DNA of 64,000 nucleotides from an uncultured Candidatus Bathyarchaeia archaeon (lineage in GTDB: Archaea > Thermoproteota > Bathyarchaeia > Bathyarchaeales > Bathyarchaeaceae): contig CAZUDX010000006.1 of NCBI GenBank assembly GCA_964618695.1, positions 4,548-68,547 on the forward strand, given 5' to 3'. The notes under the pieces were generated by a model, which searched no databases, was not told the origin of the DNA, and saw only the letters and a program-made list of their open reading frames with translations. The position numbers and the translations under genes were made by a program. Below are positions 17,802 through 60,090 of the stretch, piece after piece (the first letter of the stretch is position 1; every line of letters starts with the position of its first letter).

Positions 17802-17894
17802 TCTCGGGACTAGTTTAGTTTCTTGAGCTGAACATAACTACTCAAACTACAGAGAACGATCCCTATAAGCTAAGAAGTACGAACTAATCAGAAT

Positions 17895-17910: not shown

Positions 17911-17993
17911 GGTTCAACTTTATAGTTTTATGAGCATAGTTTAGAAACTTTAATACCGTCAGGAATGAAGTGTTTCCTGAAGGGTGAACCAGC

Positions 17994-31757: not shown

Positions 31758-31981
31758 TTTGTGCATCTAATTAATTATTAAATGTTTTTTACCACTGATT
31801 CATTGTGACATATCTGCTTTCAGAGTTGAACTTGCCGACAAGAAATGTAAAGTTGTTGTTGGCTGGGTTCGTTTTTAGAGCCTTGATTTAAAATGCTAAG
31901 GATTGTTTAGGTTGGCAAATCTTGCGGACCCTAATCTCTTTGCAAAAATTAGGCGGTATATAATCTGGAAGTGGAAAAGGG

Positions 31982-32287
31982 CTAGTTCAGAATTGTTGTC
32001 GGATTAACTCTGGTTATTTTTTCGTTGTCTCCCAAGAGATCTGCAATTTCTTCGTAGCTTTCTAGGTATTTTTCGCCTTTAGCCGTTATTCTGTAGACTT
32101 TTCTCTTTTTTTCGTTATGAATTTTGAGTAGTTCCATTTTTACGAGGAAAGAGAGGTACTCGTTTAGTTGGGCAAAGCTCAGGTTTGCTCTGTACATGAT
32201 TTGGGTTTTCAGGCTTCCATCTTTGGCTATTTCGAGTATTTCTGCTATTATGTAGAGTCTGTCCCTGCGTTTTCGCTCGTTTTCCAT
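31982..32287 (-). CDS. Winged-helix transcriptional regulator (COG3432-like)
   Basis: RDRLYIIAEILEIAKDGSLKTQIMYRANLSFAQLNEYLSFLVKMELL...YRITAKGEKYLE. I chose the ATG at 32287. Confidence 0.7.
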   Translation of the reverse strand: MENERKRRDRLYIIAEILEIAKDGSLKTQIMYRANLSFAQLNEYLSFLVKMELLKIHNEKKRKVYRITAKGEKYLESYEEIADLLGDNEKITRVNPTTILN

Positions 32288-32493
32288 ATTATTAAGCCTC
32301 TCTAAGTTTTTTCTATATGTCTTGTCTATAGCGAAAGTGGAACTTTGACACCTAAAAAGCCTGTTTCCGAAGCGCAAATATTCCCATAAACAGAATATAC
32401 CAACTGCTTGGAGTTTCCAATGTGAATGTCATAAGGCTTATAAGGCAAAACCGCACTCCGCTTTTCTGTTAGAACTGAAATAAGGAGATTGCC

Positions 32494-32625
32494 TTGAGTC
32501 AGGAAAAACTGAAACGGCGTGCCTTTCGTCTACGTTTCTTGATTGATCATATCAAGAACAAGAAGACTAAGCAGAAGGTTATCGCTGAATACGTTAGTCT
32601 CATAAAGCAAATGAGCAACAACTAG
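32494..32625 (+). CDS. Possible 43-aa basic helical small protein
   Basis: TTG start 7 nt after AAGGAG. The peptide is (M)SQEKLKRRAFRLRFLIDHIKNKKTKQKVIAEYVSLIKQMSNN. It is below the ORF-track length cut-off. Confidence 0.3.
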   Translation: MSQEKLKRRAFRLRFLIDHIKNKKTKQKVIAEYVSLIKQMSNN

Positions 32626-33076
32626 CCTTCAGGTCAACGCTTAAAAACTATTTTTTACTTATCTTTTTTCCAAAATAGGTAGACTTTGGTATGGGAAAGA
32701 GATGAAGAGTTTAAAATCCACATTTCAAAGAGAAATCCCAAATAAAGAGAATTTAAACTCAATAAGTTGTAGTAGCTTCCTTTGCCTTCCGTTTAGGCAT
32801 TATCCGTCAAAATTTGTTATTTGAGTTGTGACATTTTTAACCTTAGTGAGGGACAAACTGTTCTCTTAAAAATTTTTCAAAAATATAACCTCTTAACCAA
32901 TTATCTAACGTTATTAAGACTCTTACCAAAGAACAGAGATTCGGCCTCTAAAGAAACTAGAGGTATGTCGTCCAATATTTAATGTTCTTTCCATAGGTTC
33001 AGCTTATAGAAAGTAACTTTGGGTCTTTGCCAAAGAGAATAAAGAGTTTCAAAAGGGTTCGAAGTCGTCGAAGAGC

Positions 33077-33249
33077 CCTAAATTTGGTTTCCAAAGAGAA
33101 CCTAAAGAGATTGGATGCCGATTATTAAAGAGAATGTCAAGAAGCAAAGAGGCGGACCCAAAGAGCGTAAAGAGGAAAGCAAAGAGAAATGGAGCAATTC
33201 GAGCAGGTCGAATCTGATATCTGGAAACAAGCTTTGAGAAAAAAAGAGA
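33077..33249 (+). repeat. ~173-bp direct repeat unit 1 (AAAGAG-rich)
   Basis: Aligns with 33279-33450 at roughly nine-tenths identity by eye, with a 202-bp period. Confidence 0.85.
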
Positions 33250-33278
33250 TTTTCTCCTATGTTTAATAATGGAAGGGT

Positions 33279-33450
33279 CCTAAATTTGGTTACCAAAGAG
33301 AACTTGAAGAGATTGGATGCCGGCTACTAAAAGAGATCGTAAAGAGCCAAAGAGGCGGACCCAAAGAGCGTAAAGAGGAAAGCAAAGAGAAATGGAGTAA
33401 TTCGAGCAGGTCGAATCTAATATCTGGGAACAAGCTTAGAAAAAAGGAGA
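33279..33450 (+). repeat. ~173-bp direct repeat unit 2 (AAAGAG-rich)
   Basis: Shares long identical stretches with unit 1, for example AAGAGGCGGACCCAAAGAGCGTAAAGAGGAAAGCAAAGAGAAATGGAG and ATTCGAGCAGGTCGAATCT. Confidence 0.85.
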
Positions 33451-33544
33451 CTGGGGGAAACTCTTCGTAGAAATGATTTTGATTATTCGTAATTCTTGGC
33501 AAAGACTTAACAATATTTAATCGTGTCAAGATTCAAGAAACATT

Positions 33545-33754
33545 ATGAAGACCAAACTTTGAATTAAGTGCCCTAACTGTAGCCATTGGAACAGGGTAGA
33601 TGTTGAAAAGGTATTCTCAGAACAAGCCACTTCAGAACCTAAAGTAAAAGCCTTTGTTCCTTTCTAATTACCTTTCAAAACTGAAAAATGTTCTAAATGC
33701 GGTCAAGTTATAGCAAAAGAAAAGGAACTTGTCAGAATAGTTCCAAGCCAATAA
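33545..33754 (+). pseudogene. Disrupted zinc-ribbon gene (CPNC...CSKC) with two in-frame stops
   Basis: The 70-codon frame reads MKTKL*IKCPNCSHWNRVDVEKVFSEQATSEPKVKAFVPF*LPFKTEKCSKCGQVIAKEKELVRIVPSQ*. Confidence 0.35.
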
Positions 33755-33852
33755 CGCCTCTTCGTGGGAAAGTCCCGATGGTTAACAGACTCTTCGTGAA
33801 ACCTAAAAGTCCATAAGAGTTAACAGAACCGTTTTAAGAGGGCGAAGTGTTT

Positions 33853-33913
33853 GTCAAGAAACTTTGACCAAAAAACTGCAGTATGTATCATTTATTGGTC
33901 AAGAAACCTTGAC
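33853..33913. promoter_or_regulatory. Two copies of palindromic box GTCAAGAAAC(T/C)TTGAC, 45 bp apart, upstream of the 33955 operon
   Basis: 33853-33868 and 33898-33913 match at 15 of 16 positions and both are followed by an A-run. The second copy has perfect 6-bp inverted arms GTCAAG/CTTGAC. Confidence 0.45.
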
Positions 33914-33954
33914 AAAAACGCTTTTAATCTTTATTTGCAATAAAATGAATCGTC

Positions 33955-35070
33955 ATGTTTCTATATACGAAGAAAACCACATCAAAAATTGGTTCAATGC
34001 TCATTTTTCCTTTTTTTCTAACAACTTTCTTCATTCCTCTTAGTACAACTGAGGATTCTTGGGCAACGATGGAGCCGATGCCTACTGCTAGAGGTTCCTT
34101 CGGTGTTGCTGTTGTGGACGGTAAGATATATGCAATTGGAGGATTCAATGGAAGCAACTATCTTGCAATTAATGAAATGTACGACCCAGAAACAGATACA
34201 TGGACAACAAAGCAGTCGATGCCAACTGCACGGCACGAATTTGCTATAGCTGTTTGTCAGAATAAAATTTATGTTATAGGCGGAGTTTTTCGTGCAAACG
34301 ATTTCTTTAACTCGGGATTCACTGGAGTAAATGAAGTTTACGACCCTTTAACTGACACTTGGGAAACTATGGAGCCGATGCCCACCGCTAGAGCTAGGCT
34401 ACAAGCAAACGTTGTAGACAACAAAATCTACCTCATAGGCGGCGCCAAGTACGATAGAATCTGGCCTTTTTATTGGGGCACTGCTGGTTTGAATGAGGTT
34501 TATGATCCATTGACTAATTCTTGGTCAACAAATTCGCCGATGCCAACAAGTGTGGGCTACTACTTCTCAGCAGTGGTTGACAACAAAATTTATGTTATGT
34601 ATGCTGTAATCGAGACTTCATTCCTCACCCAAATATACAACTCCGAAACTGATTCATGGAGCTACGGAAAAAAGTTGCCAACCGCAGCTTTTGTGGCGAC
34701 TGCTGGCGCAACTACTGGCGTGCTGGCTCCAAAGAGGATTTACGTTTTAGGTGGAATGGTAGAATCTAACGTTGCCACCAACCTCAATCAAGTGTATGAT
34801 CCGGAAACTGATACGTGGACTAATGGCACATCGATGCCGACTCCCCGCTGGGCATTGGCAGTTGCTGTCGTAAATGATGAGCTTTACGCAATTGGAGGTT
34901 ACAACGGTGAAACCCGCTTGGCAGTTAATGAAAAGTATACGCCAATCGATTATATTCCTGAGTTTCCTTCATGGACACCAATGCTGGTTATGCTACTTGT
35001 AATAGCAATTTTAACAGTCATGTACAAACATCGTCTACGCAGAGCCAATCATGGGAGAAAGATTAAGTGA
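33955..35070 (+). CDS. Secreted Kelch-repeat (beta-propeller) protein with PEF-CTERM-like tail
   Basis: About six repeats of ...MPTAR....AVVDNKIYVIGG....NEVYDP.TD.W... The C-terminus reads IPEFPSWTPMLVMLLVIAILTVMYKHRLRR. Confidence 0.85.
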   Translation: MFLYTKKTTSKIGSMLIFPFFLTTFFIPLSTTEDSWATMEPMPTARGSFGVAVVDGKIYAIGGFNGSNYLAINEMYDPETDTWTTKQSMPTARHEFAIAVCQNKIYVIGGVFRANDFFNSGFTGVNEVYDPLTDTWETMEPMPTARARLQANVVDNKIYLIGGAKYDRIWPFYWGTAGLNEVYDPLTNSWSTNSPMPTSVGYYFSAVVDNKIYVMYAVIETSFLTQIYNSETDSWSYGKKLPTAAFVATAGATTGVLAPKRIYVLGGMVESNVATNLNQVYDPETDTWTNGTSMPTPRWALAVAVVNDELYAIGGYNGETRLAVNEKYTPIDYIPEFPSWTPMLVMLLVIAILTVMYKHRLRRANHGRKIK

Positions 35071-38232: not shown

Positions 38233-39018
38233 ATGTTCTACGAAAAATACCTGAAAGCAACCAAAGAAAAAAACAGCTTCATCAACATCAACCTCGACCC
38301 AGCGCTGCCAAAACAGAGAAAAACCAACGTTATCCCCCAAAAATACGTCACCAAAGAAGACAGCGAAACTCTCCTCAACTTCTCTTTAGACATAATAGAA
38401 CAAGTCAGCGACTACTGCTGCTCCGTGAAACCAAACACCCAATACTATCTCGGCAACACAACCATACTCAAACAAATCGCAAAAAAAATCCACAAAGAAG
38501 GAATGCTAGCCATACTAGACCACAAACTCAGCGACATCGGCTCATCCAACGGCTCCGCCCTATACTGGATACAACAAATGGGCTTCGACGCCTTCACCTT
38601 CTCTCCCTTCGCCGGCAACACACAAAAAACAGTGGAAAAAGCACACGAAAAAAACCTAGGAATAATAGTTCTCACCCTCATGTCCAACCCAGAAGCAGAA
38701 AACATGATGACAAAAACAATAGTCAACGGAGAACCATACTACCTGCACACCGCCAAAATAGTGAAAGAATCCAATGCTGATGGGTGTGTGGTAGGCTTAA
38801 CCTGTTTTGTTGAGGACGAATACATCACAAACATTCAGAAAACTGTTGGAGACAGAGTAGTGCTTCTGTTGCAGGGCATAGGTCCCCAAGGCGGAGAAGC
38901 TAAAAAAATAAAACATGCCCAAAACCCATTAGTCAGCTTGGGCAGAGCAGTCATCTACTCCGACAACCCAAAAGAGACCATTAAAAGATACCACCGCATC
39001 TTCAAAGCCAAATACTAA
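38233..39018 (+). CDS. pyrF: Orotidine-5'-phosphate decarboxylase-like (type 2 PyrF family)
   Basis: INLDP near the N-terminus and LDHKLSDIGSSN (D-x-K-x-x-D-I pattern). The length of 261 aa fits. Confidence 0.55.
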   Translation: MFYEKYLKATKEKNSFININLDPALPKQRKTNVIPQKYVTKEDSETLLNFSLDIIEQVSDYCCSVKPNTQYYLGNTTILKQIAKKIHKEGMLAILDHKLSDIGSSNGSALYWIQQMGFDAFTFSPFAGNTQKTVEKAHEKNLGIIVLTLMSNPEAENMMTKTIVNGEPYYLHTAKIVKESNADGCVVGLTCFVEDEYITNIQKTVGDRVVLLLQGIGPQGGEAKKIKHAQNPLVSLGRAVIYSDNPKETIKRYHRIFKAKY

Positions 39019-39033
39019 CGACAGGTCAATATA

Positions 39034-39085
39034 GGGCAGTAAACAAACTGTTTACAACATTATTGCCCAACGATTCCAAATCGTT
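39034..39085 (+). terminator. Two adjacent perfect hairpins after the pyrF-like gene
   Basis: GTAAACA-AAC-TGTTTAC (39039-39055) and AACGATT-CCA-AATCGTT (39069-39085), followed by an A/T-rich run. Their function is unproven. Confidence 0.3.
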
Positions 39086-39165
39086 CAAAAATGCAATATC
39101 AACATCTTACAAAGTAACATCTATCAACAAGTTTTGTATACTGTTGCCCCATCTAGAAACGAAAT

Positions 39166-40029
39166 CTATTTGGTTTTCTTTTTTGTTTCAGTTTTCCATC
39201 TAATACGTCTAGCTAATTTGCTAACATGTGGAAGTTTTAGGAATGAAGATTCTTCCTTTTTAGTAAGTGTAACTGCTACGGACAACTCTCTTAAGAAATC
39301 ATTTGCTTTTTTATACCCTAGGAAACGAGACATAGCTTCAATGTATATAAATTGAGTTATGTCCAAGACTTTAAGGCTCATATTATACATTGTCATGAAA
39401 TCTTCGTTATTATATCTAGGAATCTGTTCAGGTCTTTTTTCCATTTGTTTTTCAATTCTTTCAGAACTTGGATGAACAAAGTCAGAGAGTTTTTCGTAAA
39501 TCTCTTTTAATTCATCTGAAATCATGGGAGCTTCAGAAAAAAAATTCCTAGACTTTAATCTATTTACCATTTCCTTAAAACTTGGTGCTATTCTCTTTGC
39601 TTCTTCACGTATTTTGTAACTTTCTTTGAATGCAACCCAACCGTTGTTCTTGAATAGTAATTTATTTAACAACTTTTCTTTATCGGAAACACTTGTGGTT
39701 TTACTAACTTCTAGATACTGAGCAAACAAATCATCCAATAATGGGCGATGTTTTTGGGATTGAAAATCACATGCCTCTAATGCTGTCTCAAGTATACACC
39801 TAAGACTTCGGGCACATCCAAAATACAAACTTGATTGCAATTCATAGTGAAAAATAAAAAATTCTTTTACACATAGGAAAAACGTTGGTGTAATTACTTC
39901 ATTATGCTTAACCATTTCGACTAAATAATCAACATGATTTTTATCAGATTTAATCTCCAAAGTTCGTAACAAATAGGATAATTCCAAGTAACTAAGGAAA
40001 AAAATGTTAGCGGAAAAAATGTCTTCCAA
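39166..40029 (-). CDS. Hypothetical protein in an A+T-rich island (possible DUF4145/HEPN-like)
   Basis: Weak resemblance only: ARSLRCILETALEA and IYEKLSDFVHPS resemble the two conserved helices of DUF4145-type HEPN-like domains. Confidence 0.55.
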   Translation of the reverse strand: MEDIFSANIFFLSYLELSYLLRTLEIKSDKNHVDYLVEMVKHNEVITPTFFLCVKEFFIFHYELQSSLYFGCARSLRCILETALEACDFQSQKHRPLLDDLFAQYLEVSKTTSVSDKEKLLNKLLFKNNGWVAFKESYKIREEAKRIAPSFKEMVNRLKSRNFFSEAPMISDELKEIYEKLSDFVHPSSERIEKQMEKRPEQIPRYNNEDFMTMYNMSLKVLDITQFIYIEAMSRFLGYKKANDFLRELSVAVTLTKKEESSFLKLPHVSKLARRIRWKTETKKKTK

Positions 40030-40439
40030 ACGACAAGTTCCTTTTTACAATTTGCTCTAGTCTTTCTAATTTCCCCGTAGGAAGTGCTTGGAAATTTAAC
40101 CTTGTGTGTTAGGGTTATGGTAAAACTATATTTTTTAAGAGGTTTTTTCTTCCCCCCTTTACTAGACATTATTAAGACGCTCCCTGATGCTCCTTTTATT
40201 AATCCAGATAATACTCTTATTTGTTAAATAAAAAACATTAGCTGGAGTCTATATAGATTTTTGCGATGAAGAAATTTTACTCAAATTAAGTCGAACTTGT
40301 AACATTTTAAGTCGCTACTTCTATCTGTGTTTATTAGTGTGTTTTACTAATTAATTCTCTGAGAAATTAGAAATTAGTCGTAAGATTTCGTATTGCGGGA
40401 GATATTGCTAGTGATGTCTTAGACCATGCGGAAACGGCT

Positions 40440-40682
40440 TCAGATTATCTCCATGTATTTTGTTCCTTTCTCTGTTATTCTGTAGATTCCTCGGCTAACC
40501 CGTTCAATACACTCCTTCTTCAGCAAGTATCGCAGACGATTATCAAATCTGGTTCTCGTAGCCAAAGAATGGCAGCTGGTCAAAACCTTCTTCTCCAAGG
40601 CTGTCCAGCGTACATGCCCCTTAGTAAGTGCAGTGAGGATCACCTTGTCCATCATGTCCTGTTCTTCTCGGCGACGACTCAC
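40440..40682 (-). CDS. Small winged-helix protein
   Basis: The C-terminus VSRGIYRITEKGTKYME parallels YRITAKGEKYLE of the 31982 regulator. Confidence 0.5.
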   Translation of the reverse strand: MSRRREEQDMMDKVILTALTKGHVRWTALEKKVLTSCHSLATRTRFDNRLRYLLKKECIERVSRGIYRITEKGTKYMEII

Positions 40683-40886
40683 AGCAACTTCACCTCCACA
40701 GGCATAACCGCAGGACTAAGCTACTACAAAGACCAAGAAAAACCAGAAACCCAAAACCCTAACTCAATACCCTACCACAAATAGTACATTTAGGGTTCAA
40801 ATTTCTAGAGGACATTTCTGAAGAAAACCTTCAGAAGCCATTTAAACCTTGCATACCAAACTAAATACTTCACAGGAGCCTCCAAC

Positions 40887-41117
40887 ATGCCAACCGAAAC
40901 CATCCTGCGAATACTAGAAAACGGAGAATGGCACCACCTAAAAGACCTAGAAACGAAAACCCAACTAACCGAACACAAAATTAAATACATCACAAACTTT
41001 CTAGCAGAATACAACTTCATCCAACTAGACGAAACACAACAAAAAGTAAAACTGGACCCACCCACAATGAAATTCCTCAAAAAAATCCGACAAATCGAAA
41101 ACGAATTCCCACACTAA
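40887..41117 (+). CDS. Small winged-helix-like protein
   Basis: ILRILENGEWHHLKDLETKTQLTEHKIKYITNFLAEYNFIQLDE. I preferred this over the antisense ORF 40805-41080. Confidence 0.45.
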   Translation: MPTETILRILENGEWHHLKDLETKTQLTEHKIKYITNFLAEYNFIQLDETQQKVKLDPPTMKFLKKIRQIENEFPH

Positions 41118-51000: not shown

Positions 51001-52104
51001 ATGAACGTTACGTTAATTCTGGGAACGAGACCTCAAATAATCAAGTCTGCTCCATTAATCCACCTAGCCGAAGAAGATTCAGATGTGGACATGCAGCTTG
51101 TTCACACGGGTCAACATTACGATTACGAAATGTCCAAAGAATTCTTCGACGAACTAAACCTTCCAGACCCAACAGCGAACCTGAACATCGGCTCCGGCAC
51201 TCACGGTTGGCAAACCGGCAAAATGTTGATTGCTCTAGGAAATGTGTTGAAGGATGAGAAACCTGACTTGATAATTGTTCCTGGAGACACAAACTCCACC
51301 ATAGCTGGCGCATTATTTGCCTCCAAACTCCACATTCCAGTGGCGCACATGGAGGCTGGCGAAAGAAGCTACAACATGGATATGCCCGAAGAGGTAAACC
51401 GCCGACTCACCGACCATTGTTCAACTCTTCTATTCGCAGCAACCAAAAAATCTGTCAACAACCTTTTGAAAGAGGGAATAAACCCGAAGAGCATTCATCT
51501 AGTCGGCGACACGATGTACGATTCCGTGCTGAACCATATTTCAGCGGCTTTGAAAGAAAACCTTTTAGGCAAACTGGGTTTGCAGCAAGATAGTTACGCC
51601 GTTCTCACAGCACATAGACCAGAAAATGTTGATTCGCCGAAAAGACTGGAAGAAATCGTGGAAGCGACAAGACAGTTAGGGGACGTGACTATAGTTTTTC
51701 CAATTCATCCACGGACGAAACTCAGATTGGAGGAAACGGGTCTACAGAAGAAGTTGAAGAAGAACGTTAGGATTATTAAGCCGCTGAAATACCGTGAAAT
51801 GCTTAACCTAATGAAAAACGCTAAACTGCTTCTCACGGACTCGGGTGGAATGCAAAAGGAAGCCTTCTGGCTAGAAACACCATGCGTTACCCTAAGAAAT
51901 GAAACAGAATGGACAGAAACGATTGAATTAGGCGCCAATGTTTTGGTTGGAACTAATCCTCAAAAAATTGTGAAGGAAACCAACAGAATCTTGAAGGATG
52001 AAACAAAAGGCAAAAAAATCAGCATTGACACTAACCCTTTTGGGGATGGAAAAGCGTCACAGAAAATACTTAACATCATCAAAAATTTTTGCTCCAGTAT
52101 CTAA
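51001..52104 (+). CDS. wecB: UDP-N-acetylglucosamine 2-epimerase (non-hydrolysing, WecB family)
   Basis: LGTRPQIIK, HTGQHYDYEMS, VPGDTNST, HMEAGERS, EEVNRRLTDH and DSGGMQKEA motifs. Confidence 0.9.
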   Translation: MNVTLILGTRPQIIKSAPLIHLAEEDSDVDMQLVHTGQHYDYEMSKEFFDELNLPDPTANLNIGSGTHGWQTGKMLIALGNVLKDEKPDLIIVPGDTNSTIAGALFASKLHIPVAHMEAGERSYNMDMPEEVNRRLTDHCSTLLFAATKKSVNNLLKEGINPKSIHLVGDTMYDSVLNHISAALKENLLGKLGLQQDSYAVLTAHRPENVDSPKRLEEIVEATRQLGDVTIVFPIHPRTKLRLEETGLQKKLKKNVRIIKPLKYREMLNLMKNAKLLLTDSGGMQKEAFWLETPCVTLRNETEWTETIELGANVLVGTNPQKIVKETNRILKDETKGKKISIDTNPFGDGKASQKILNIIKNFCSSI

Positions 52105-52188
52105 TCTGAGAAAAGCTTGCGAAAGTTGGTCTGATGGAAAACATTTAAATCCTGTGAAACATCGTTACCAAGCTTAGAGGCTCATGTA

Positions 52189-52359
52189 ATGTCAGAAAAA
52201 GTTTCACGTGGACTTACTTACGAATGCGTGAAATGCGGTGCCAAAGTTAAGACTGAAGAGCTTGAGTTGCGCGGTGGAGGAGTGAAATGCACCTTTTGTG
52301 GTTACCGCGTCCTCAAGAAGAAGAGACCGCCCGTAGTGAAACGAGTCTCCACAGGATAA
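52189..52359 (+). CDS. rpoP: DNA-directed RNA polymerase subunit P (Rpo12/RPABC4)
   Basis: 56-aa ORF missing from the track because it is under 60 aa: MSEKVSRGLTYECVKCGAKVKTEELELRGGGVKCTFCGYRVLKKKRPPVVKRVSTG. It is a Zn ribbon (CxxC...CxxC) with the typical ...R(V/I)L.K.RP ending. Confidence 0.8.
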   Translation: MSEKVSRGLTYECVKCGAKVKTEELELRGGGVKCTFCGYRVLKKKRPPVVKRVSTG

Positions 52360-52487
52360 CTTCAGCCGCCTTTCATTTTAACAGTAAAATCTTAAAAGAA
52401 TATAGACTGTTGTTGCGCTGAATCTCCAACCTGTTGTTAACTATAGATGTTAATCTTGGAAAAAGAAAATGGGGGAAAAAAGAAATT

Positions 52488-52775
52488 CTAGTAGATTTCT
52501 TTTTCGCCTAACTTCCTTAGAGCTTTACCTTTGAGTTTCACAGATGGAATTAGGGTTTCTTCAGGTCTCTTTTCAACTGTTCTGCGTTTCACAGATTCAC
52601 CGCATACCCCACCGGGCAGTAGCCGTCTCTTTACGCATGTTGCGTAGCTGCAGTTGGCTACATTGCATTCGTCATCGGTCCATCTGCACCAAACTCGGTT
52701 TCCTTGATAGATCACAGCTCGTTTCAAGCATTTGAACATCCGACAGTTTGGAGAACAATATTTTGTTTCAGCCAA
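52488..52775 (-). CDS. Small Cys-rich basic protein (unknown function)
   Basis: Nine Cys in the first ~60 aa (CSPNC...C...C...C...C...C..) followed by a basic tail. Confidence 0.55.
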   Translation of the reverse strand: MAETKYCSPNCRMFKCLKRAVIYQGNRVWCRWTDDECNVANCSYATCVKRRLLPGGVCGESVKRRTVEKRPEETLIPSVKLKGKALRKLGEKEIY

Positions 52776-52872
52776 TATGTGCCACGTCCTTCACATGAAC
52801 AAAAATTCTTTGATGTTGATGCCATCAGCAGTTTATGCTTCGACGACTGAAAAATATAAGTTTTTTGTTTTT

Positions 52873-52934
52873 AGGTTCTGTTACCTCTTCGGTTGGTTAA
52901 GCTTTTCTGAAGGGCTGTTACTTTTCGGTTGATA
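52873..52934 (+). repeat. Left terminal inverted repeat (62 bp) with internal sub-repeats GTTAC(C/T)T(C/T)TTCGGTTG(G/A)T
   Basis: AGGTTCTGTTACCTCTTCGGTTGGTTAAGCTTTTCTGAAGGGCTGTTACTTTTCGGTTGATA. Confidence 0.9.
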
Positions 52935-53059
52935 GACTACGAAGAGCCTAATTCTGAATCTATAGTTTATAACCCAAAACATTAAATATGATGTTGAAAG
53001 ACTGACATTTCGAGTGTGTATATATGTCTCCATGGGTTCAATGAGAAGGTGACTCGTGG

Positions 53060-53725
53060 ATGGTATGCCTTAAGGATTTTAGAAGCGGTCAAAAGCGTGA
53101 TAGAACGTTAGAGGAACGTATCACTGACCGATTTTTGCTACTTTATCTAATTCACGATGCTGGTGAAGTTCTTGGAAAAACTAAACTTCAAAAACTCGCT
53201 TACCTATCTGAATTTGAAATGAATACACAAGGATTTAAAGGATTAAATTTCAATTTTATAAAAATGCCTTACGGTCCTTATAGTTCAGAGCTAGAGAAAG
53301 ATAGGGAACTATTGATTAACTCTCACATTATATCAAGACAGGTACATGTACCAACACAGTTTGGCAGAATGGTTCTTAATAATTTTCAACATTTAATCCA
53401 AAACAATCCTGTCCTAACAGAAAAGATTCAGAAAGTAAACCGAGAGTATGCACATATTCCTAGGGATGAATTAGTGGACATTGTACATGAAATGTGCAAC
53501 CCTATGAGACCGTGGTCAACAATAAATGAGTCAAGACATGGTAGTTACCTCTTAAAGAGAATAAAGATTTGGCATAAAGACAGAGTTTTTAAACTCTCAG
53601 AGAGTGATATTGCATCTCTAGAGATTTATTTCAGCCCTACAGCATTTGACTCACTTAAGCTCTCGCTTAATGAGGCAAAAACTAAACCCGCTGTTAATCT
53701 CAGAGATGTGAAGAATCTTGCCTAA
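53060..53725 (+). CDS. SocA/Panacea (DUF4065) domain protein, putative antitoxin
   Basis: GKTKLQKLAYLSEFEM...FIKMPYGPYSSEL matches the KLqKLlY...GP signature of DUF4065. Confidence 0.75.
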   Translation: MVCLKDFRSGQKRDRTLEERITDRFLLLYLIHDAGEVLGKTKLQKLAYLSEFEMNTQGFKGLNFNFIKMPYGPYSSELEKDRELLINSHIISRQVHVPTQFGRMVLNNFQHLIQNNPVLTEKIQKVNREYAHIPRDELVDIVHEMCNPMRPWSTINESRHGSYLLKRIKIWHKDRVFKLSESDIASLEIYFSPTAFDSLKLSLNEAKTKPAVNLRDVKNLA

Positions 53726-54056
53726 AGTTTTTCTTCAGCAAAAAGCATGTAGGCAACTTAAAAAGCTTAAGAAAAAAGCTAAAGTTAGATACGAAAAAAT
53801 ATTAAAATGCCTTGATGAACTTTCAGAAGACGCAGAAAACGATTCTATACTCTTGCAAGACCCGATTTTTTATGGACTTAGGCGAATGAAAGCAAAGGAC
53901 GATAGGATAATTTTTCAAATTTGTAAAGAGTGCCGATCTAACCCCACAATTATGAGGCTTAGACAGTGTATTGATTGCGAGGAGATTCCTGCTAACGGGA
54001 TTAAAGTTTTTGAGATTCAATTAAGAAAAGATGCGTACAAGACCCATAATCATTAA
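53718..54056 (+). CDS. RelE/ParE-fold-like putative toxin with a CxxC...CxxC zinc-knuckle insertion
   Basis: The N-terminus has the A.RQLKKLKKKAKVRYEKILKCLDELSED pattern. DDRIIFQI ... IKVFEIQLRKDAYK resembles the RelE core strands, separated by CKECRSNPTIMRLRQCIDC. TTG start with an 8-nt overlap onto the upstream gene. Confidence 0.6.
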   Translation: MPKVFLQQKACRQLKKLKKKAKVRYEKILKCLDELSEDAENDSILLQDPIFYGLRRMKAKDDRIIFQICKECRSNPTIMRLRQCIDCEEIPANGIKVFEIQLRKDAYKTHNH

Positions 54057-54221
54057 GACGAGTTAAAGGAAATATCCAAAATTTCACCACAAAAAACGAG
54101 GTTCTGTTAACTCTTAAGCACATCGGCTAGTTTTGAAAGGGTGTTAACTATCGGTACATTAATATCATTAAATCCATAAGACATATAAGAAGTATCTCTT
54201 TGAATTTAATAGGGAGTATCA

Positions 54222-54812
54222 TTGAGTTTTAAGGTTTTCAAACATGACAGTTTGATTATCATCGAAGTTCCTTTAACCCAAAAAGAAATTGACAAATGTC
54301 TCGAAATGGGCAAAAAAAGAACCGAGCTAGATGAGGAAGAATTAGGATGGACATATCGCCATCATGGCATGAAAAGTGAGAAAGCCCATGCAATAGGTTT
54401 TATGGGAGAACTTGCTTTTGAAAAAATTCTTGACTCTGAAGGGATAGAGTACATAAGGAACAATCCATTTGTTGAAAAATACGAAGACATTGAACAAGAC
54501 TTCAGAATAGGGAATATTGAAATCGGAGTGAAAAGTGCAAATAATGATAGTTTGGAAGGTGCAACTAGATACGGTACCTTTCTTTATCCAGCCAAACAAG
54601 AGATGGGAGAATCTAAAAGGATTCTTTCTTACCCTGATTATTTAGTGCAAACAGTTGTCAGCATTAGTGAGAAAAAATGTTGGGTATGTGGATTTGTTGA
54701 TGAAGAAACCATACGAAAATCACCTACAAGAATAATCGTTAGAAGACCAGCTCATAGGATACCCATTGACGAATACAAACCAATAGAAACTCTTCTTAAA
54801 GAATTGGACTGA
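54222..54812 (+). CDS. Hypothetical protein, possible PD-(D/E)xK-like nuclease (candidate restriction partner)
   Basis: The order GELAFEKIL ... QDFRIGNIEIGVKSA suggests an E / D / E..K arrangement. It is convergent with, and overlaps by 17 nt, the methyltransferase gene. The catalytic assignment is weak. Confidence 0.55.
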   Translation: MSFKVFKHDSLIIIEVPLTQKEIDKCLEMGKKRTELDEEELGWTYRHHGMKSEKAHAIGFMGELAFEKILDSEGIEYIRNNPFVEKYEDIEQDFRIGNIEIGVKSANNDSLEGATRYGTFLYPAKQEMGESKRILSYPDYLVQTVVSISEKKCWVCGFVDEETIRKSPTRIIVRRPAHRIPIDEYKPIETLLKELD

Positions 54813-57156
54813 AATCAATTTTTTGTTTCTGGTCGTAACGGATAATATCCGCTCCGCCTACTTCTCTCTTTATTAGTGGGATATATTCTGGTGAAACTTC
54901 TATCCCTACTGAACGTCTTTTCAAGGCTTTCGCAACTTTGCTTGTTGTTCCAGAACCCAAGAATGGGTCTAAAACAACCTCGCCCTCATAAGAGTACATT
55001 TTGATTAGTCTTTTCACAATAGTTTCTGGGAAAGGTGCTGGGTGGTCTTTTACGTGAGATACAGGTAACTCCCAAATGCTCCAACTCCATTCCTTAACTT
55101 CACTTACGCTTAGGGGATTGCGTCCAAAGAAAACTTCAGGTTTGTCGCCTTTCTGAAAAATGAGAATGTGTTCATGATGAATGTTTATCATTGTATTTCT
55201 AGGATATGGTTGATTTAGAAAAGAGGTCGTTCCTCTGTTCCAGATTCCTTGTATTCCTAAAGGTTTTACCCAAATGTGCTCTCGTTTATAGTGAAATCCA
55301 ATATCTTCAAGCAATTGCGTGATAAGTGCTGGAATGAAATAGGATTTTTCTCCGCTAGTAAATTGCCCAACAATTACACAAAGAAATCTACCATCTTTCA
55401 GAACCTTGAAACACCCCTCAAATATTGTTTTCAAATCCTTCAAGTACACGTCAATTGATTGAGCATCAATCCTAAAATCGCTATCAGGATAATCTTTAAG
55501 GGAAAAATAGGGTGGCGAAGTAATTATCAAGTCCACAAAAGTGCGGTCAAGCTGTCCTAAAATCGTTCCAGCATCACCAATAACAATTTTGTGAACAAGG
55601 TCGGCTTCGTTTACTTTCCATGTAATAGATTCTTCAATTTTTTTCCTTTTAGCCAATCTTTCTGAAGCCAACAGTTCCTTGTATCGTTGTGATGCCTCCT
55701 TGAGGAGCTTCTTATCTTCCAAAATTACATCTTTTGCTTTTTCTACAGCTTTTTGCTCAATGCGTTTTCTTTCAGCCTCAATCCTCTTTTTAATCTCTTC
55801 CTCAGCCTTTTTCTTTGTTTCTTCTTCTAATCGTTTCTTTTCCTGCTCTATACGTCTTTCTTCCTCTTTTTCAATTTCAGCTCTGAGAACTTTTGCATCT
55901 TCGTAAGCCAAGTCGGGGTCTTCTAAACTTTTTTGTCGTATATCGTTAACTCTCTCTTCAAAATCGGAAACATTGAAACCTAACTGTTTAGCTTCTTCTA
56001 GTATTGACATTACATTATTCTTACCTCCCGACAAAAACTTCTCTACTTTTTGTCGACCTTTCTCTAGCTTTACAAGACCTGTAAGTTCTTTTTTAATCCT
56101 GTTTATCTCCCTCTTCGCACCACCAGAATCTTCTTTAATAGAAGCAGACAACTGGTTGGTTTTGGATTTGTATTGAGCTACATCCAATCCAATTTCTTCA
56201 GCTTCCTTGATTTTGCTTTTTAGACCGTTAAGTGCTTTATTTACTGCATCAATTTTCTTTTGTTTTTCCAGCGCCAGTCTAACTGCTTCATTCATAACTG
56301 CTTCTTTTGTTGGTGGTTTCCCTTCAGGTAACTTATTGTCCTCCTCTTCCTCTTCGCTCTCTTTCTTTTTGTCTTCCAGTTTTTTAGCTAGTTCTTCTGC
56401 TTCTATGTTAAAACGAGTGAAATAATTCTTAATGTAATCTCTTAATTGTTGTCGGTCTTGAAATTTTCCTTCTCGGAGCATTTTTTCTACTTCGGCTTGT
56501 TTCTTGGGATGATCTGGATAAAGGCTTGTAACAGGACCTGCGTAGGAGTAAGGAATTTGACCTTTTCCTCTTCCAATCATTGCTTGTGTTTCAGGTTCTA
56601 GCAAAAGGCATTGAATATAATTCCAGATAGTCATCTGATTTTTCTTTAGTAGTCTAGCGAGTTCTGATGTACCTCTTTTATCATAACGTCCTATTCCTTC
56701 TTTAGTAATTCCTTGTCTTAAGCCTAATAAATTTATTAGGCTAACTCTATCCATTGACTTCAATTCTTTAAGGGAGTAGTTTTTGTCTGTGTTGATGTTT
56801 ACAATCCAACGACCGTAAGCCCAAGCTTTATCCATGTCTCCATGCAGTTTTTTGTATTCATCATCCTCCATTTGTAGACGGAATTTTTCTATAGGACTCA
56901 ATCCTACGAGTCTTTCAACTTTAACTTTCGGTAATCCAGCAATTAATGATGCACGCCATCTTCGTTCTCCAAGAATAATCATGTTGTTCTCGTCAATTTT
57001 AATTTGCCAAATCTGGTTTTTCGTATCTCCATGATATGATTCTGCCAGTTTTTGCAGTGCTTCTTGTTCTTCTGGGCTGTCCCAATTAGGTTGACGTGGT
57101 TGGTTCGGGTCACGCTTCAAAACATTTGGATCTATATATTCGATTAGTTTACTCAT
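54796..57156 (-). CDS. ParB-like N-terminal domain, ~250-aa K/E coiled coil and N4/N6 DNA methyltransferase (PF01555-type) fusion
   Basis: ParB motif ILGERRWRA. Long EEKKR-rich coiled region. The MTase has DLIITSPPY (motif IV) upstream of VVLDPFLGSGTT (motif I), which is the beta-class order. Confidence 0.9.
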   Translation of the reverse strand: MSKLIEYIDPNVLKRDPNQPRQPNWDSPEEQEALQKLAESYHGDTKNQIWQIKIDENNMIILGERRWRASLIAGLPKVKVERLVGLSPIEKFRLQMEDDEYKKLHGDMDKAWAYGRWIVNINTDKNYSLKELKSMDRVSLINLLGLRQGITKEGIGRYDKRGTSELARLLKKNQMTIWNYIQCLLLEPETQAMIGRGKGQIPYSYAGPVTSLYPDHPKKQAEVEKMLREGKFQDRQQLRDYIKNYFTRFNIEAEELAKKLEDKKKESEEEEEDNKLPEGKPPTKEAVMNEAVRLALEKQKKIDAVNKALNGLKSKIKEAEEIGLDVAQYKSKTNQLSASIKEDSGGAKREINRIKKELTGLVKLEKGRQKVEKFLSGGKNNVMSILEEAKQLGFNVSDFEERVNDIRQKSLEDPDLAYEDAKVLRAEIEKEEERRIEQEKKRLEEETKKKAEEEIKKRIEAERKRIEQKAVEKAKDVILEDKKLLKEASQRYKELLASERLAKRKKIEESITWKVNEADLVHKIVIGDAGTILGQLDRTFVDLIITSPPYFSLKDYPDSDFRIDAQSIDVYLKDLKTIFEGCFKVLKDGRFLCVIVGQFTSGEKSYFIPALITQLLEDIGFHYKREHIWVKPLGIQGIWNRGTTSFLNQPYPRNTMINIHHEHILIFQKGDKPEVFFGRNPLSVSEVKEWSWSIWELPVSHVKDHPAPFPETIVKRLIKMYSYEGEVVLDPFLGSGTTSKVAKALKRRSVGIEVSPEYIPLIKREVGGADIIRYDQKQKIDFSPIL

Positions 57157-57175
57157 CTCAATTCTCTCTTATTAG

Positions 57176-57382
57176 TTAAATTTCTCCAGAGTTCCTTATG
57201 GGTTTCACAATTATAACCAATTCACCCTCTTCGACTTTCAGTTTCCAGCTTAGTTTGTCTCCTGCCTTGAGATTAAACTGTTTAATTATGCTCATTGGAA
57301 CGGTTGCTCTCATTGAAGTACTTTTTGTTGTCGCTGGTGTTAGTGTTGTCGTTTCTCCAATATCTTCTTCATTGGCATTCAT
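57176..57382 (-). CDS. AbrB/MazE/SpoVT-family small DNA-binding protein
   Basis: RATVPMSIIKQFNLKAGDKLSWKLKVEEGELVIIVKP is a swapped-hairpin AbrB-like pattern. I chose the ATG at 57382, because the rest of ORF 57176-57718 runs through the intergenic operator array and into the transposase gene. Confidence 0.7.
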   Translation of the reverse strand: MNANEEDIGETTTLTPATTKSTSMRATVPMSIIKQFNLKAGDKLSWKLKVEEGELVIIVKPIRNSGEI

Positions 57383-57397
57383 GGTATCCACATTGAT

Positions 57398-57503
57398 AGG
57401 TAATGCATTAGGTAACTTATAAAACTTTTTACCTAAAAATTGTCTAAAACATTTACCTAAACATTTATATATTAGGTAAGCGTATAGGTAAAATTGTAGG
57501 TAA
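57398..57503. promoter_or_regulatory. Array of seven TAGGTAA boxes (five forward, two inverted) between the divergent abrB-like and transposase genes
   Basis: The AGGTAA core occurs at 57398, 57410, 57474, 57486 and 57498 on the forward strand, with 12-bp spacing within the forward clusters. TTACCT occurs at 57429 and 57453. Confidence 0.6.
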
Positions 57504-57508
57504 AGCTT

Positions 57509-58639
57509 ATGATGAGCACGCAAGAACTCCAAAAACTTCGGGAAGAAAGGGGTTTGGAGATTTTTAATAATAACAGAAATAGCATCAGAAGTGTTGATGG
57601 TATTTCTTATCGGGTTCTTTCTCAAAGCGGAAATGGTAGCTACATGGTTTCTGAGGTAGATGGTGAATGGATTTGTGAGTGTCCAGACCACAAGTTCAGG
57701 GGATTGAAATGTAAGCATGCTTGGGCTGTAGAGTTCAGCATAAAACTAAGAAAAGAAGTGCAGAAAGGTGCACTAATTCAGGAAATAACAATCTCAGAAT
57801 GTGTTTATTGCCACTCTCAGGACATCAAAAAGAACGGAGTAAGGCACAACAAAAGCGGGGACCTTCAAAGGTTCATCTGTGAAAAGTGCGGAAAAACTTT
57901 CAGCATAAACATTGGGTTTGAACGCATGAAACATAATCCTCAGGCGATAACGACAGCTATGCAACTTTACTTTAGCGGAGAATCGTTAAGGAACACTCAG
58001 AAATCTCTTAGACTGTTAGGAGTGGAAGTTTCGCATAAGACGGTCTATATGTGGATTAAGAAGTATGTAGGATTAATGGAGAGATACATTGACAAGCTTA
58101 AACCTCAAGTTTCGGATACTTGGAGAGCCGATGAACTTTGGATGAAATTCAAAGGCGACATGAAATACGTCTTTGCGATTATGGATGATGAGACGAGATA
58201 TTGGATTGCTCAAGAAGTTGCAGAGTCCAAATACAAACACGATGCAAGAAAGCTGTTCCAACTAGCCAAAAAGGTTACAGGGAAAAAGCCTATGACAATG
58301 ATAACTGATGGACTTCCAGCCTACAATAAAGCCTGTAGGAAGGAGTTCTGGACTCTTCGTAAACCCAGAACAGAACACATACGCCACATTAAGCTTAGAG
58401 GCGATATGAACAACAACACAATGGAACGCCTGAATGGGGAAATCAGAGACAGAGAGAAGGTCATGCGAGGACTCAAGAAAGAAAATTCCCCGATTCTCAG
58501 AGGTTACAAAATTTATCACAATTTTATCAGAGAACACAGCGGACTTGGCGGAAAAACACCTGCCGAAGCATGTGGAATAACTGTCAAAGGAAAGAACAAA
58601 TGGAAAACTCTGATTCAGAACGCATGTAAAGAAGAATAA
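57509..58639 (+). CDS. DDE transposase (IS6/IS240-like catalytic core) with N-terminal SWIM-type and Zn-ribbon fingers
   Basis: CECPDHKFRGLKCKHAWAV (SWIM-like) and CVYCHS...CEKCG. The core is WRADELWMKFKG...YVFAIMDDETRY...MITDGLPAYNKA...NNTMERLNGEIRDREK (D, D, E). Confidence 0.85.
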   Translation: MMSTQELQKLREERGLEIFNNNRNSIRSVDGISYRVLSQSGNGSYMVSEVDGEWICECPDHKFRGLKCKHAWAVEFSIKLRKEVQKGALIQEITISECVYCHSQDIKKNGVRHNKSGDLQRFICEKCGKTFSINIGFERMKHNPQAITTAMQLYFSGESLRNTQKSLRLLGVEVSHKTVYMWIKKYVGLMERYIDKLKPQVSDTWRADELWMKFKGDMKYVFAIMDDETRYWIAQEVAESKYKHDARKLFQLAKKVTGKKPMTMITDGLPAYNKACRKEFWTLRKPRTEHIRHIKLRGDMNNNTMERLNGEIRDREKVMRGLKKENSPILRGYKIYHNFIREHSGLGGKTPAEACGITVKGKNKWKTLIQNACKEE

Positions 58640-58659
58640 CCGCTTTTCTCTAAAAAAAT

Positions 58660-58992
58660 TTATCCAGAAGCTCCAGTGCGTTCCAATCTCATATTCAATG
58701 TTCCATTGTAAAGAATTTCTTCGTAAAGAAACTGAACAAACTTGCCAAACAATTCATACATTGCATTATAGTTTGGTTCTCCTGTTTTCATCCCAGAACC
58801 TAATCCAACGCAGATTTCATTTTCAAATCCTTCTGTGCCTCCCATACTCGATGTATCGTCATTTACATCAAAACCTTGCTTTTGGAAAACACGGATAAGC
58901 TGTTGCCATTTATCTATAATTACTCCCTCATTCATCAGATGTGATTTTTCAATTTGTATCCATAACTCAGCATAAGTTTCTCCCATATCCAT
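58660..58992 (-). CDS. Hypothetical 110-aa acidic protein (element cargo)
   Basis: An ORF only. I recognised no motif. Confidence 0.5.
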   Translation of the reverse strand: MDMGETYAELWIQIEKSHLMNEGVIIDKWQQLIRVFQKQGFDVNDDTSSMGGTEGFENEICVGLGSGMKTGEPNYNAMYELFGKFVQFLYEEILYNGTLNMRLERTGASG

Positions 58993-59130
58993 TCACCTGA
59001 GAATAACAGTTACGATTTTGACACTTATTTATTGTGTATAAGAATTACATAAAATGGGAGCGACATTCAGATGGAGAATAAACACAATTCTGTTGATGCT
59101 TACACACCTTATGAGACTCTTCGTGATTGT

Positions 59131-59192
59131 TATCAACCGAAAAGTAACAGCCCTTCAGAAAAGCTTAACCAACCGAAGAGGTAACAGAACCT
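59131..59192 (-). repeat. Right terminal inverted repeat (62 bp)
   Basis: Exact reverse complement of 52873-52934. Imperfect similarity (ACGAAGAG) continues ~16 nt inward on both sides. Confidence 0.9.
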
Positions 59193-59364
59193 GTTTTTAG
59201 AATCCATATGTGGTTTTGCTTCTCGTTTGCGTGATCAAACGATAAGAAGGCACGTAAGCGCTTTGAAGACACAATTTCTAGACATCTTGGAAAAAAATTC
59301 GTATTATAAAATAAGGAAAGAGGTAAAAAGAGGAATGTTGGGTCGATGCGATTCTATGTATTTT

Positions 59365-60090
59365 TTAGCTTCTGAACTTTTGCAGTTTCTTTAGAAGCTC
59401 TATATCGCCTTTGGGGTCTCCAGCGCATGTTGCAATGATGCCGTCCACGAGACCATCAAGCTTTGCTGCATATTCTACAGCATTTTCCATTTTTGTGGTT
59501 GTTGGCCATCCGATCATCTTTATTATTTCGGCATTCTTTGGTGTCCCCACCAAGAAGTATGAGTAAATCGGTTTGTTTAGACGTTTGCACTCTTTAGCTA
59601 CTTGCTCCAATACTGGGAAGGATTTGTCTTCAAGCCTCATGAACATTATGAAGTCCCATGCGCTTCTAGCCCTTGCGATTGCGTCGTCTACTGAGCGTCG
59701 TGCAGTAAGTAAACAGCCTAATTTTAGGTTTTTTACGCGTACATCATTTCGCAAGAATTCTCTAGCGACTTCAGAGGATTTCAGCATCTTTATTGGTTCG
59801 CCGTAAATGGGCTTGTCACCCATGGTGAGTGCTAGACCGTCAAGACCTATGACATCTGCTGCTAAAGCTAAACCGCCCACTTCAACTGGACCTTTGTAGT
59901 GCAGTATGAATATAGGTATCACAATTTTTTCAGGATATTTTTCCTTGAGTACACAACTGACTACCGTTCCGCTTGGAGCGGGTCTACCTGCAGCGCTGTC
60001 TGTGACGTTCCATCCATCAACCAAATCTTTTGTTTCTTCGGCAAGTTTCATAAATTTTCGTGTTGGAACAAACTCGTTCAATATTTTCAT
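59365..60090 (-). CDS. Methylenetetrahydrofolate reductase (MetF)-like TIM-barrel protein
   Basis: NVTDSAAGRP..., IPIFILHY and GLDGLALTMGDKP resemble the MetF patterns vTd.a.G / H.tc / niLaLrGD.p. This is a moderate call. Confidence 0.5.
   Translation of the reverse strand: MKILNEFVPTRKFMKLAEETKDLVDGWNVTDSAAGRPAPSGTVVSCVLKEKYPEKIVIPIFILHYKGPVEVGGLALAADVIGLDGLALTMGDKPIYGEPIKMLKSSEVAREFLRNDVRVKNLKLGCLLTARRSVDDAIARARSAWDFIMFMRLEDKSFPVLEQVAKECKRLNKPIYSYFLVGTPKNAEIIKMIGWPTTTKMENAVEYAAKLDGLVDGIIATCAGDPKGDIELLKKLQKFRS

Follow-up and report, generated by a model that had tools for sequence, protein, structure and literature searches.

Does a group of genes lying between two long inverted repeats travel as one mobile element, or do the repeats merely happen to bracket it? 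The question is raised by a 64,000-nt stretch of the Bathyarchaeia contig CAZUDX010000006.1 (referred to here as the window, whose positions serve as coordinates for the element), in which an earlier note, made from the letters of the stretch, had described a 6.3-kb transposon-like element carrying defence genes. The segment at 52874-59191 is very probably a non-composite unit transposon of an IS6-related archaeal family that was inserted as one unit, by a route that, on the analogy of IS26, would be replicative.

The insertion point is intergenic, between a 241-aa gene on the right (59365-60090, minus strand; orthologues at 88-91% identity) and a Cys-rich 95-aa gene on the left, in a Bathyarchaeia chromosome. 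The corresponding site in relatives was reached through orthologues of the 241-aa gene. Locus L027 (ENA) features this orthologue (91% identical), then 232 bp, then a 95-aa gene, and the loci L024 and L025 (JGI) feature it at 89% identity, followed by a 79-aa gene; both the 95-aa and the 79-aa genes match the position of the Cys-rich gene to the left of the window element. In the alignment L027 reads ...AAATTTTTTGTTTTTTAAATCAACATGAG..., wherein the left flank of the window runs straight into the right flank with one octamer and no repeat, and the empty-site sequence reconstructed for the window is ...AAGTTTTTTGTTTTTAGAATCCATATG.... L027 and L025 are orthologous empty sites, from which all 6,318 bp are absent and which hold exactly one copy of the octamer. 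Therefore, the 6.3 kb is an insertion that arrived in one piece, and the empty site that the earlier note had suggested looking for exists in related genomes. In a more distant genome (L008) the left flank is kept at 83% identity up to 52872, reading ...TTTTTTGTTTTTC..., with no end sequence. The predicted empty-site 23-mer had 0 matches in the JGI metagenome collection, and an exact-sequence look-up of the Cys-rich neighbour returned no record. The insertion is not ancient, for relatives with neighbour genes of ~90% identity lack it.

The same insertion is borne by a Logan contig from SRR14802572, the source sample, which stops 30 nt into the end, as expected of a k=31 assembler at an inverted repeat. 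A second break in this short-read assembly (L028, about window 52905-57979, and L023) falls within the transposase gene and may point to other variants of the transposase in the sample. On the left, the insertion adjoins a TATA-like, A/T-rich stretch (52853-52873), some 80-100 nt upstream of the Cys-rich start codon, and the Cys-rich gene probably retained its own promoter after the insertion.

An inverted-repeat search of the window returned two 62-nt arms, 52873-52934 and 59131-59192, that are 100% complementary and 6,196 nt apart, in agreement with the earlier note. A 30-mer from the end occurs in these two places alone in the 64-kb window, with 0 occurrences expected by chance and no match in any shuffle. 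When the ends were registered against 15 related complete elements, the boundaries shifted by one base to begin at GG, at 52874 and 59191, which gives an element of 6,318 bp with ends of 61 bp each and the tip GGTTCTGTT. The left terminal inverted repeat is at 52874-52934 (plus strand) and the right one, 100% complementary to it, at 59131-59191 (minus strand). Because this registration follows the family-wide GG start, the target duplication is read as 8 bp, TGTTTTTA, with identical copies at 52866-52873 and 59192-59199 and a single copy, as TGTTTTTT, at the empty site of L027. The GTTTTT previously taken for the duplication does abut both arms, but the true duplication is the octamer and the ends start at GG.

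Each end is built of two parts. In the left end the tip GGTT is followed by an outer sub-repeat (CTGTTACCTCTTCGGTTGGT, 52878-52897), a 17-nt spacer and an inner sub-repeat (CTGTTACTTTTCGGTTGAT, 52915-52933), and both of these direct sub-repeats, already recognised before, are found in each arm. Further inward, the sub-terminal motif ACGAAGAG lies a few bases inside the perfect repeat at 52939-52946 (plus strand), with its reverse complement at 59117-59124 (minus strand). A structured-DNA or guide-RNA role of the end was considered and dropped, as the end folds no better than shuffled sequence (z -0.39); Rfam gave no RNA family within window 52000-60000.

A transposase scan of one genome per species identified 22 genome loci encoding relatives of the transposase, the hosts being Bathyarchaeia, Candidatus Methanoperedens, Nitrososphaeria (including Nitrosopumilus) and one Sifarchaeum bin. 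When each of these loci, and one JGI contig (L029) added later, was compared with itself, the transposase gene proved in most cases to be flanked by long inverted repeats. Sixteen complete elements (the window element, L001, L002, L005-L009, L011, L013-L017, L019 and L029) span 2.2-6.3 kb and have bipartite ends of 40-70 nt, and most family ends start GGTTCTGT, in register at the GG. Besides the window element, perfect 8-bp duplications flank L002 (GATAATAA), L005 (CTCCACAG), L006 (CGAAACTG), L007 (CTATTTTA), L014 (TCTTCCAC), L016 (AATGAGCA), L017 (TGTTGAGT) and L029 (TTAAGAAT). The Methanoperedens elements L013 and L015 have 9-bp duplications, three elements (L001, L008 and L009) have none, and L011 and L019 are unscorable or have none. 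As a single 8-bp match has a chance of ~1.5e-5, this series is no coincidence.

These observations bear on the possibility that unrelated insertion sequence (IS) ends or remnants bracket ordinary chromosomal or plasmid-derived genes, the repeat in the T-rich flanks being coincidental. Such an assemblage would agree with a third, diverged end inside the element and a further solo end at 33770-33830; moreover, plasmids and phages often carry toxin-antitoxin pairs and fusions of ParB with a methyltransferase (PHROG matches). However, the orthologous empty site, lacking the whole 6,318 bp and holding exactly one octamer, excludes it for practical purposes, the same architecture recurs with perfect 8-bp duplications in eight other elements, and Pfam and NCBIfam scans found no replication, integrase or capsid/structural gene in the element. 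A chance assemblage is thus highly improbable.

The transposase, a 376-aa protein encoded at 57509-58639 on the plus strand, combines a SWIM finger (C56/C58/C68/H70), a zinc ribbon (C98/C101/C124/C127), a helix-turn-helix (HTH) and a DDE core (D208/D267/E306 plus R313). That the sole recombinase is a DDE protein with an IS6/IS240-like core, SWIM and zinc ribbon was claimed in the earlier note and is borne out by Pfam (DDE_Tnp_IS240 3e-15, 57 bits against a gathering score of 27; SWIM 7.9e-4), by an NCBIfam transpos_IS6 match spanning profile positions 1-202 of 202, and by tblastn. The NCBIfam zinc-ribbon model IS1_IS1595_Zn is passed as well (30.9 bits, cut-off 28), and transpos_IS1 is weaker than IS6 and below threshold (65.5 bits, cut-off 100). 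In tblastn against 72,556 plasmids the transposase matched 2,509 records, and among the matches listed every annotated gene under the match was an IS6-family transposase. Identity to the bacterial IS6 transposases so matched is ~23-33%; the long, zinc-finger-bearing ISCpe7 type is among the closest, at 29-33% identity over residues 113-365. Against the window itself the transposase finds itself alone, so that the window has a single transposase-coding region.

Relatives are numerous. At E <= 0.001 the protein database yields 5,605, and the 120 best clusters are all at least 70% identical, those that are named being from Bathyarchaeia/Bathyarchaeota; in NCBI the homologues go only by the name 'DDE-type integrase/transposase/recombinase'. 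A search with just the N-terminal 140 aa matched 1,227 cluster representatives. No transposase relative was found on viral contigs, and a sequence search of solved structures gave none either. Among 34 homologues of 70-89% identity, the SWIM and ribbon residues as well as D208, D267, E306 and R313 do not vary. Judged by sequence, the open reading frame (ORF) is intact and keeps every catalytic and zinc-binding residue.

This conservation makes it improbable that the element was inserted once, is now immobile and is retained because its cargo is useful to the host. Such a fossil would agree with the single copy in the window, with the lack of any other exact copy in the collections searched, and with the related element L016, which has perfect ends and a duplication yet a split transposase gene. 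Set against it are not only the intact ORF but also arms identical at 62 of 62 positions, a duplication identical at 8 of 8, and the empty site in relatives with ~90% identical neighbour genes.

The ends themselves offer evidence on how the elements are recognised. In a set of eleven elements, changes in the outer sub-repeat are matched by changes in the inner one, with CGGTTGAT, CGTCGGAT, TGGGAT, CGTTTGCT and GAGTGGT as examples. Own outer and inner repeats share 15.7 of ~19.5 positions on average and repeats of different end types 11.9, and the observed outer/inner total was reached by 1 of 20,000 partner permutations. This is the pattern expected if both sub-repeats are sites for the element's own transposase, and they can be regarded as its putative binding sites. 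Of 24 family ends, 9 also have a motif A(C/T)GAAGAG no more than 110 nt away, compared with 0.009 expected per end.

The two arms of an element are likewise tied to each other. Of 32 ends, 28 have as nearest neighbour the other end of their own element, and the agreement extends to the spacer that separates the sub-repeats. Even the closest elements have transposases of only 80-89% identity, yet in four elements the arms are 100% identical. Transposition does not homogenise left and right ends, and to our knowledge no transposition step explains concerted evolution of the arms; therefore another process must act. It may be gene conversion between the arms, or elements may have arisen repeatedly from inverted duplications that intramolecular replicative transposition had made. 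Since the arms evolve in concert, their perfect identity in the window element is not to be read as recent movement. The earlier note had taken it to suggest recent mobility; arm identity was rejected as a clock.

Besides the transposase gene the element holds seven ORFs, and six genes are described here. Nearest the left end is a putative antitoxin, a SocA/Panacea-domain protein of 221 aa (53060-53725, plus strand; Pfam SocA_Panacea 3.7e-5, 25.0 bits against a cut-off of 25.7), which in PADLOC matches PDC-M19A (5e-11) and the C-terminal region of DarG (3.6e-7) and is 33% identical to a homologue in L016. The next gene, whose start overlaps the end of the first by 8 nt, encodes a putative toxin, a RelE/ParE-like protein of 112 aa (53718-54056, plus strand) with a weak match to the PHROG RelE-like toxin (2.2e-4). 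It has a BLAST match of 1.2e-8 to the neighbour gene in L016, which in turn matches Pfam ParE_toxin at 1.3e-5; L016 features the same Panacea/ParE gene pair, next to an element end. The third product, of 196 aa (54222-54812, plus strand), is a predicted PD-(D/E)XK-fold nuclease and candidate restriction endonuclease. Its AlphaFold2 model has a predicted local distance difference test (pLDDT) score of 93, with the NhoI restriction endonuclease as the best solved-structure match (probability 0.98, E 3.9e-3, template-modelling (TM) score 0.40-0.51) and Hjc also matched; Pfam, NCBIfam and PADLOC gave no match. A homologue at 62% identity occurs near a pair of N6_N4 methyltransferase genes, at a distance of two genes, and a small ParG-like gene stands in between; this arrangement supports a restriction-modification reading.

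Convergent with the nuclease gene, and overlapping its end, is a gene for a ParB_N and N6/N4 DNA methyltransferase fusion of 786 aa (54796-57156, minus strand; Pfam N6_N4_Mtase 4.9e-42 and ParB_N 3.7e-6, PADLOC MTase_II 3.5e-59). A small DNA-binding protein of the AbrB/MazE type, 68 aa long (57176-57382, minus strand; Pfam MazE_antitoxin 2.3e-5, 24.7 bits, equal to the cut-off), is encoded divergently from the transposase gene, and a 68-aa gene is called on Logan contig L028 too. The last ORF, of 110 aa (58660-58992, minus strand), has no match in Pfam, NCBIfam, PADLOC or PHROGs and no homologue in the other elements. The gene content first proposed holds broadly for the SocA/Panacea, ParB-methyltransferase and orphan 110-aa genes; the RelE-like label is weakly supported and the AbrB-like one sits exactly at the Pfam cut-off.

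In family elements a small gene usually lies divergent from the transposase gene (window 57176-57382; L002, L005, L013, L015, L016). As judged from the sequences, its fold differs by element, being AbrB/SpoVT-like, ribbon-helix-helix-like, zinc ribbon or winged helix; the position upstream of the transposase is conserved, and the small DNA-binding genes that occupy it are non-homologous between elements. The gene may encode a regulator or an antitoxin.

Passengers are present throughout the family: none of the 16 complete elements carries the transposase alone, and the smallest is 2,193 bp long. The closest comparison is with L029 (7938-14066), which has a transposase 87% identical to that of the window, the outer 22 nt of the end identical, and an 8-bp duplication of its own. 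Its cargo is entirely unlike that of the window element, consisting of GmrSD_N-HNH and a type I methylase/specificity-subunit pair, so the copies with other cargo that the earlier note had proposed searching for are represented by this relative. GmrSD_N-HNH is also the cargo of L001, and type I methylase and specificity-subunit pairs are carried by L002, L013 and L015. L006 carries ParB with ShosT/ShosA (ShosA 7.8e-64), L008 an NYN nuclease, L014 a GNAT acetyltransferase, L009 a proteasome-like protein, and L016 an HNH endonuclease, two N6_N4 methyltransferase ORFs and the Panacea/ParE pair; cargo beyond this is unannotated. Recognisable defence, restriction-modification or toxin-antitoxin genes occur, as a plain count, in at least 9 of the 16 elements.

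Some relatives show features of their own. L016 (975-7241) has a transposase 88% identical to that of the window, perfect 59-bp arms and an intact 8-bp duplication, and its transposase is split into ORFs of 117 aa and 237 aa; it is either a recently inactivated copy or the result of a sequencing frameshift. L019 (9591-13250 on the Nitrosopumilus chromosome OZ245040.1) encodes an IS6-like transposase without N-terminal zinc modules and also holds an IS1595-family transposase gene, and it looks like an element nested in an element. The insertion of L029 adjoins a 1,103-aa gene resembling a pPIWI-associated nuclease, and its target may be a defence island. A Nitrososphaeria locus of ~1.3 kb (L020) was considered as a minimal element and proved uninformative, its transposase gene being broken.

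How the window element came by so many genes is suggested by the third end, which the earlier note had overlooked. It lies at 54100-54160 (plus strand), between the putative toxin-antitoxin pair and the predicted nuclease gene, and is a diverged solo copy of another subtype, oriented as a left end, with the tip GGTTCTGTT, the 17-mer GGTTCTGTTAACTCTTA and both sub-repeats recognisable. In local alignment it scores 56 against the solo end at 33770-33830 but 40 against the element's own outer end, and shuffles reach at most 34. A right-hand partner was sought and not found, and no transposase is associated with it. The homologous toxin-antitoxin pair of L016 lies against the opposite element end. 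The internal solo end points to cargo gained by nesting, and suggests a history in which one element inserted into or beside another; part of the cargo would have come with this second element. Its transposase and its other end would subsequently have disappeared, so that the compatible ends still present enclose a larger cargo.

Other features lie elsewhere in the window. The solo end at 33770-33830 (minus strand) reads GGTTCTGTTAACTCTTATGGACTT...CTGTTAACCATCGGGACTT with CACGAAGAG motifs and is of the subtype of the internal end; no partner end and no transposase remnant were found for it. Next to it, at ~31.3-33.8 kb, GC is low and ORFs are few, and this stretch may represent a decayed element. 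Just outside this end and upstream of a Kelch-like gene (33955-35070) is a 29-nt inverted repeat (33847-33919, GTGTTTGTCAAGAAACTTTGACC... / ...GGTCAAGAAACCTTGACAAAAAC), 76% complementary with arms 15 nt apart, which may be an operator. Low-GC islands at 15000-18000, 31000-34000 and 39000-41000 (0.32-0.37, compared with ~0.42-0.46 elsewhere) may be further foreign DNA.

In the mechanism proposed for the element, the transposase would bind both sub-repeats at each end and cleave at the terminal GG, and the 3' ends would be joined to the target with a stagger of 8 bp. If the analogy with IS26 holds, a replicative copy-in reaction would then produce a cointegrate containing the element twice, as direct repeats, and homologous recombination by the host would resolve it into a simple insertion with its duplication. 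The cargo probably stabilises the element by addiction, through the putative Panacea/RelE-like toxin-antitoxin pair, and probably gives the host restriction-type defence through the methyltransferase and the predicted PD-(D/E)XK nuclease.

A less likely but serious alternative is that the same element is moved by conservative cut-and-paste, and that its long two-site ends assemble a synaptic complex in the manner of other DDE transposons. Of the 16 elements, 11 are simple insertions flanked by clean duplications, no locus contains a directly repeated second copy or a cointegrate-like arrangement, and the transposase has extra N-terminal domains and no more than ~33% identity to the bacterial IS6 transposases matched on plasmids. 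However, resolved cointegrates look like simple insertions as well, and the catalytic core and end tips are IS6-like. Furthermore, 3 of the 16 elements (L001, L008, L009) lack a duplication and L001 has hybrid ends, as inter-copy recombination or intramolecular replicative events would leave; these cases are compatible with a replicative route and are no proof of it.

Several points weigh against the reading of the window element as an IS6-related, replicatively inserted unit transposon with a defence cargo. The replicative pathway is taken from IS26 by analogy. The NCBIfam transpos_IS6 score, 121.1 bits, falls just under the cut-off of 125, and the AlphaFold2 model of the transposase is too poor (pLDDT 50.6) for a structural check of the domains, probably due to a shallow alignment at >=70% identity. 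No second copy of the exact element came to light, as a 29-mer of the end had no match in the JGI metagenome collection and an exact-sequence look-up of the transposase returned no record. For the cargo, the toxin assignment of the 112-aa protein is weak (E about 1e-4) and the fold match of the nuclease modest (TM 0.4-0.5).

In bacteria, DNA transposons with cargo are what spreads resistance and defence genes, but in archaea such transposons have hardly been documented. Krupovic et al. 2019 (PMC6563490) counted DNA transposons with passenger genes among the classes of element undetected in archaea, and archaeal Tn7-like elements with defence cargo have since been reported in a 2025 preprint (bioRxiv 10.1101/2025.07.27.667033). 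If the present reading is true, a second and simpler archaeal cargo class exists, with one transposase, clear ends and clean duplications, and the family may carry restriction-modification, toxin-antitoxin, GmrSD and ShosTA-type defence genes among archaea. The chances are slightly better than even that the 16 elements represent an undescribed family of IS6-related archaeal unit transposons that occur in Bathyarchaeia, Methanoperedens and a Nitrosopumilus genome, seem never to occur as a bare IS, have bipartite ends of 50-70 bp with arms evolving in concert, gain cargo by nesting and end decay, and are perhaps a major vehicle for archaeal defence genes. The literature searched, ISfinder lying outside the search and a listing under another name being possible, contained no description of IS6-like cargo transposons in archaea, and a literature search for ISMhu11 gave nothing. 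The family is common in uncultivated Bathyarchaeia and Methanoperedens, with at least 120 protein clusters >=70% identical to the transposase. It offers a tractable set of co-varying protein/DNA-site pairs for the study of end recognition, and its sharply bounded cargo, with several passengers lacking annotation, can be mined for new archaeal defence genes.

Among known systems, the window element combines traits of several. One transposase gene and its passengers are enclosed by a single pair of inverted ends, which is the layout of a transporter IS or unit transposon. Such elements, comprising a single transposase with passengers, are exemplified by the passenger-carrying IS1595 groups of the ISfinder classification. 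Like them, the window element has a target duplication and passengers that move along, and its zinc ribbon fits the IS1/IS1595 model. Unlike the IS1595 groups, it has an IS6-type catalytic domain, and its family lives in archaeal hosts and carries mainly defence, restriction-modification and toxin-antitoxin cargo. With the IS1 family (typically 9-bp, sometimes 8-bp duplications) it shares GGnnnTG ends, which are common to IS6 and IS1 (PMC6807381), but transpos_IS1 stays under threshold and the zinc-ribbon model alone passes.

IS26 pseudo-compound transposons likewise tie an IS6-type transposase to mobilised passenger genes, but they need two complete direct IS copies, whereas the window has one transposase and keeps its cargo within a single end pair. 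A compound or pseudo-compound transposon was rejected on the single transposase copy, the internal third end having neither transposase nor partner. Tn7-like elements with defence cargo (bacteria; archaea, in the preprint cited above; see also PMC8649781) resemble it in their multi-site ends and defence-enriched cargo. They differ in having TnsA/B/C, TniQ and attachment-site targeting, in their larger size, and in a 5-bp rather than an 8-bp duplication. Tn3-like and Tn7-like elements were rejected, as none of their genes is present, and an integrated plasmid or virus was dismissed on the lack of replication, integrase and structural genes.

The closest kinship is with IS6/IS26 (IS26, IS257, IS6100; the archaeal ISH14 and ISPfu1 groups; the clostridial ISCpe7 clade). 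The transposase matches the IS6 model over its HTH and catalytic region, with a DDE triad followed by a basic residue 7 positions after E, and an extra N-terminal zinc-finger region is shared with the ISCpe7 clade (PMC6807381). The published IS6/IS26 end consensus is GGTTCTGTTGCAAA, wherein the GG and G7 are nearly universal, and the family makes an 8-bp duplication (PMC6807381). The window ends, GGTTCTGTTACCTC, match it at 10 of 14 positions, the tip GGTTCTGTT being the first 9 nt of the consensus, so that the comparison of the ends with the family of the transposase, proposed in the earlier note, favours IS6. A homologous DDE/HTH transposase, GG...G7 ends and an 8-bp duplication are accordingly all found, but the compactness of IS6/IS26 (0.7-0.9 kb, 12-34-bp repeats, transposase alone) is not.

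All 37 archaeal IS6 members listed are 671-853 bp long, with 206-237-aa transposases and 12-34-bp repeats (PMC6807381). IS6 members are mostly 700-890 bp, the longest reach 1,710-1,760 bp, and the one passenger-carrying member, ISDsp3, has a single passenger gene (PMC7986276). In contrast, the window transposase has 376 aa with SWIM and zinc ribbon, its ends have 61 bp with two binding-site-like sub-repeats and a sub-terminal motif, and elements of this family measure 2.2-6.3 kb and always hold passenger genes. The earlier note had called the element atypical for IS6, and its size, end length and cargo indeed lie far outside the described range. Single-transposase elements with passengers are already known, but a 6.3-kb archaeal IS6-type element with 61-bp bipartite ends and defence cargo is outside published ranges and apparently undescribed. 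Harmer & Hall point out that archaeal and long IS6-like elements have not been studied by experiment, and membership of the IS6 family is already disputed (PMC6807381). The core, tip and stagger of the window element fit IS6 and its architecture does not, and the family as a whole stretches the definition of IS6.

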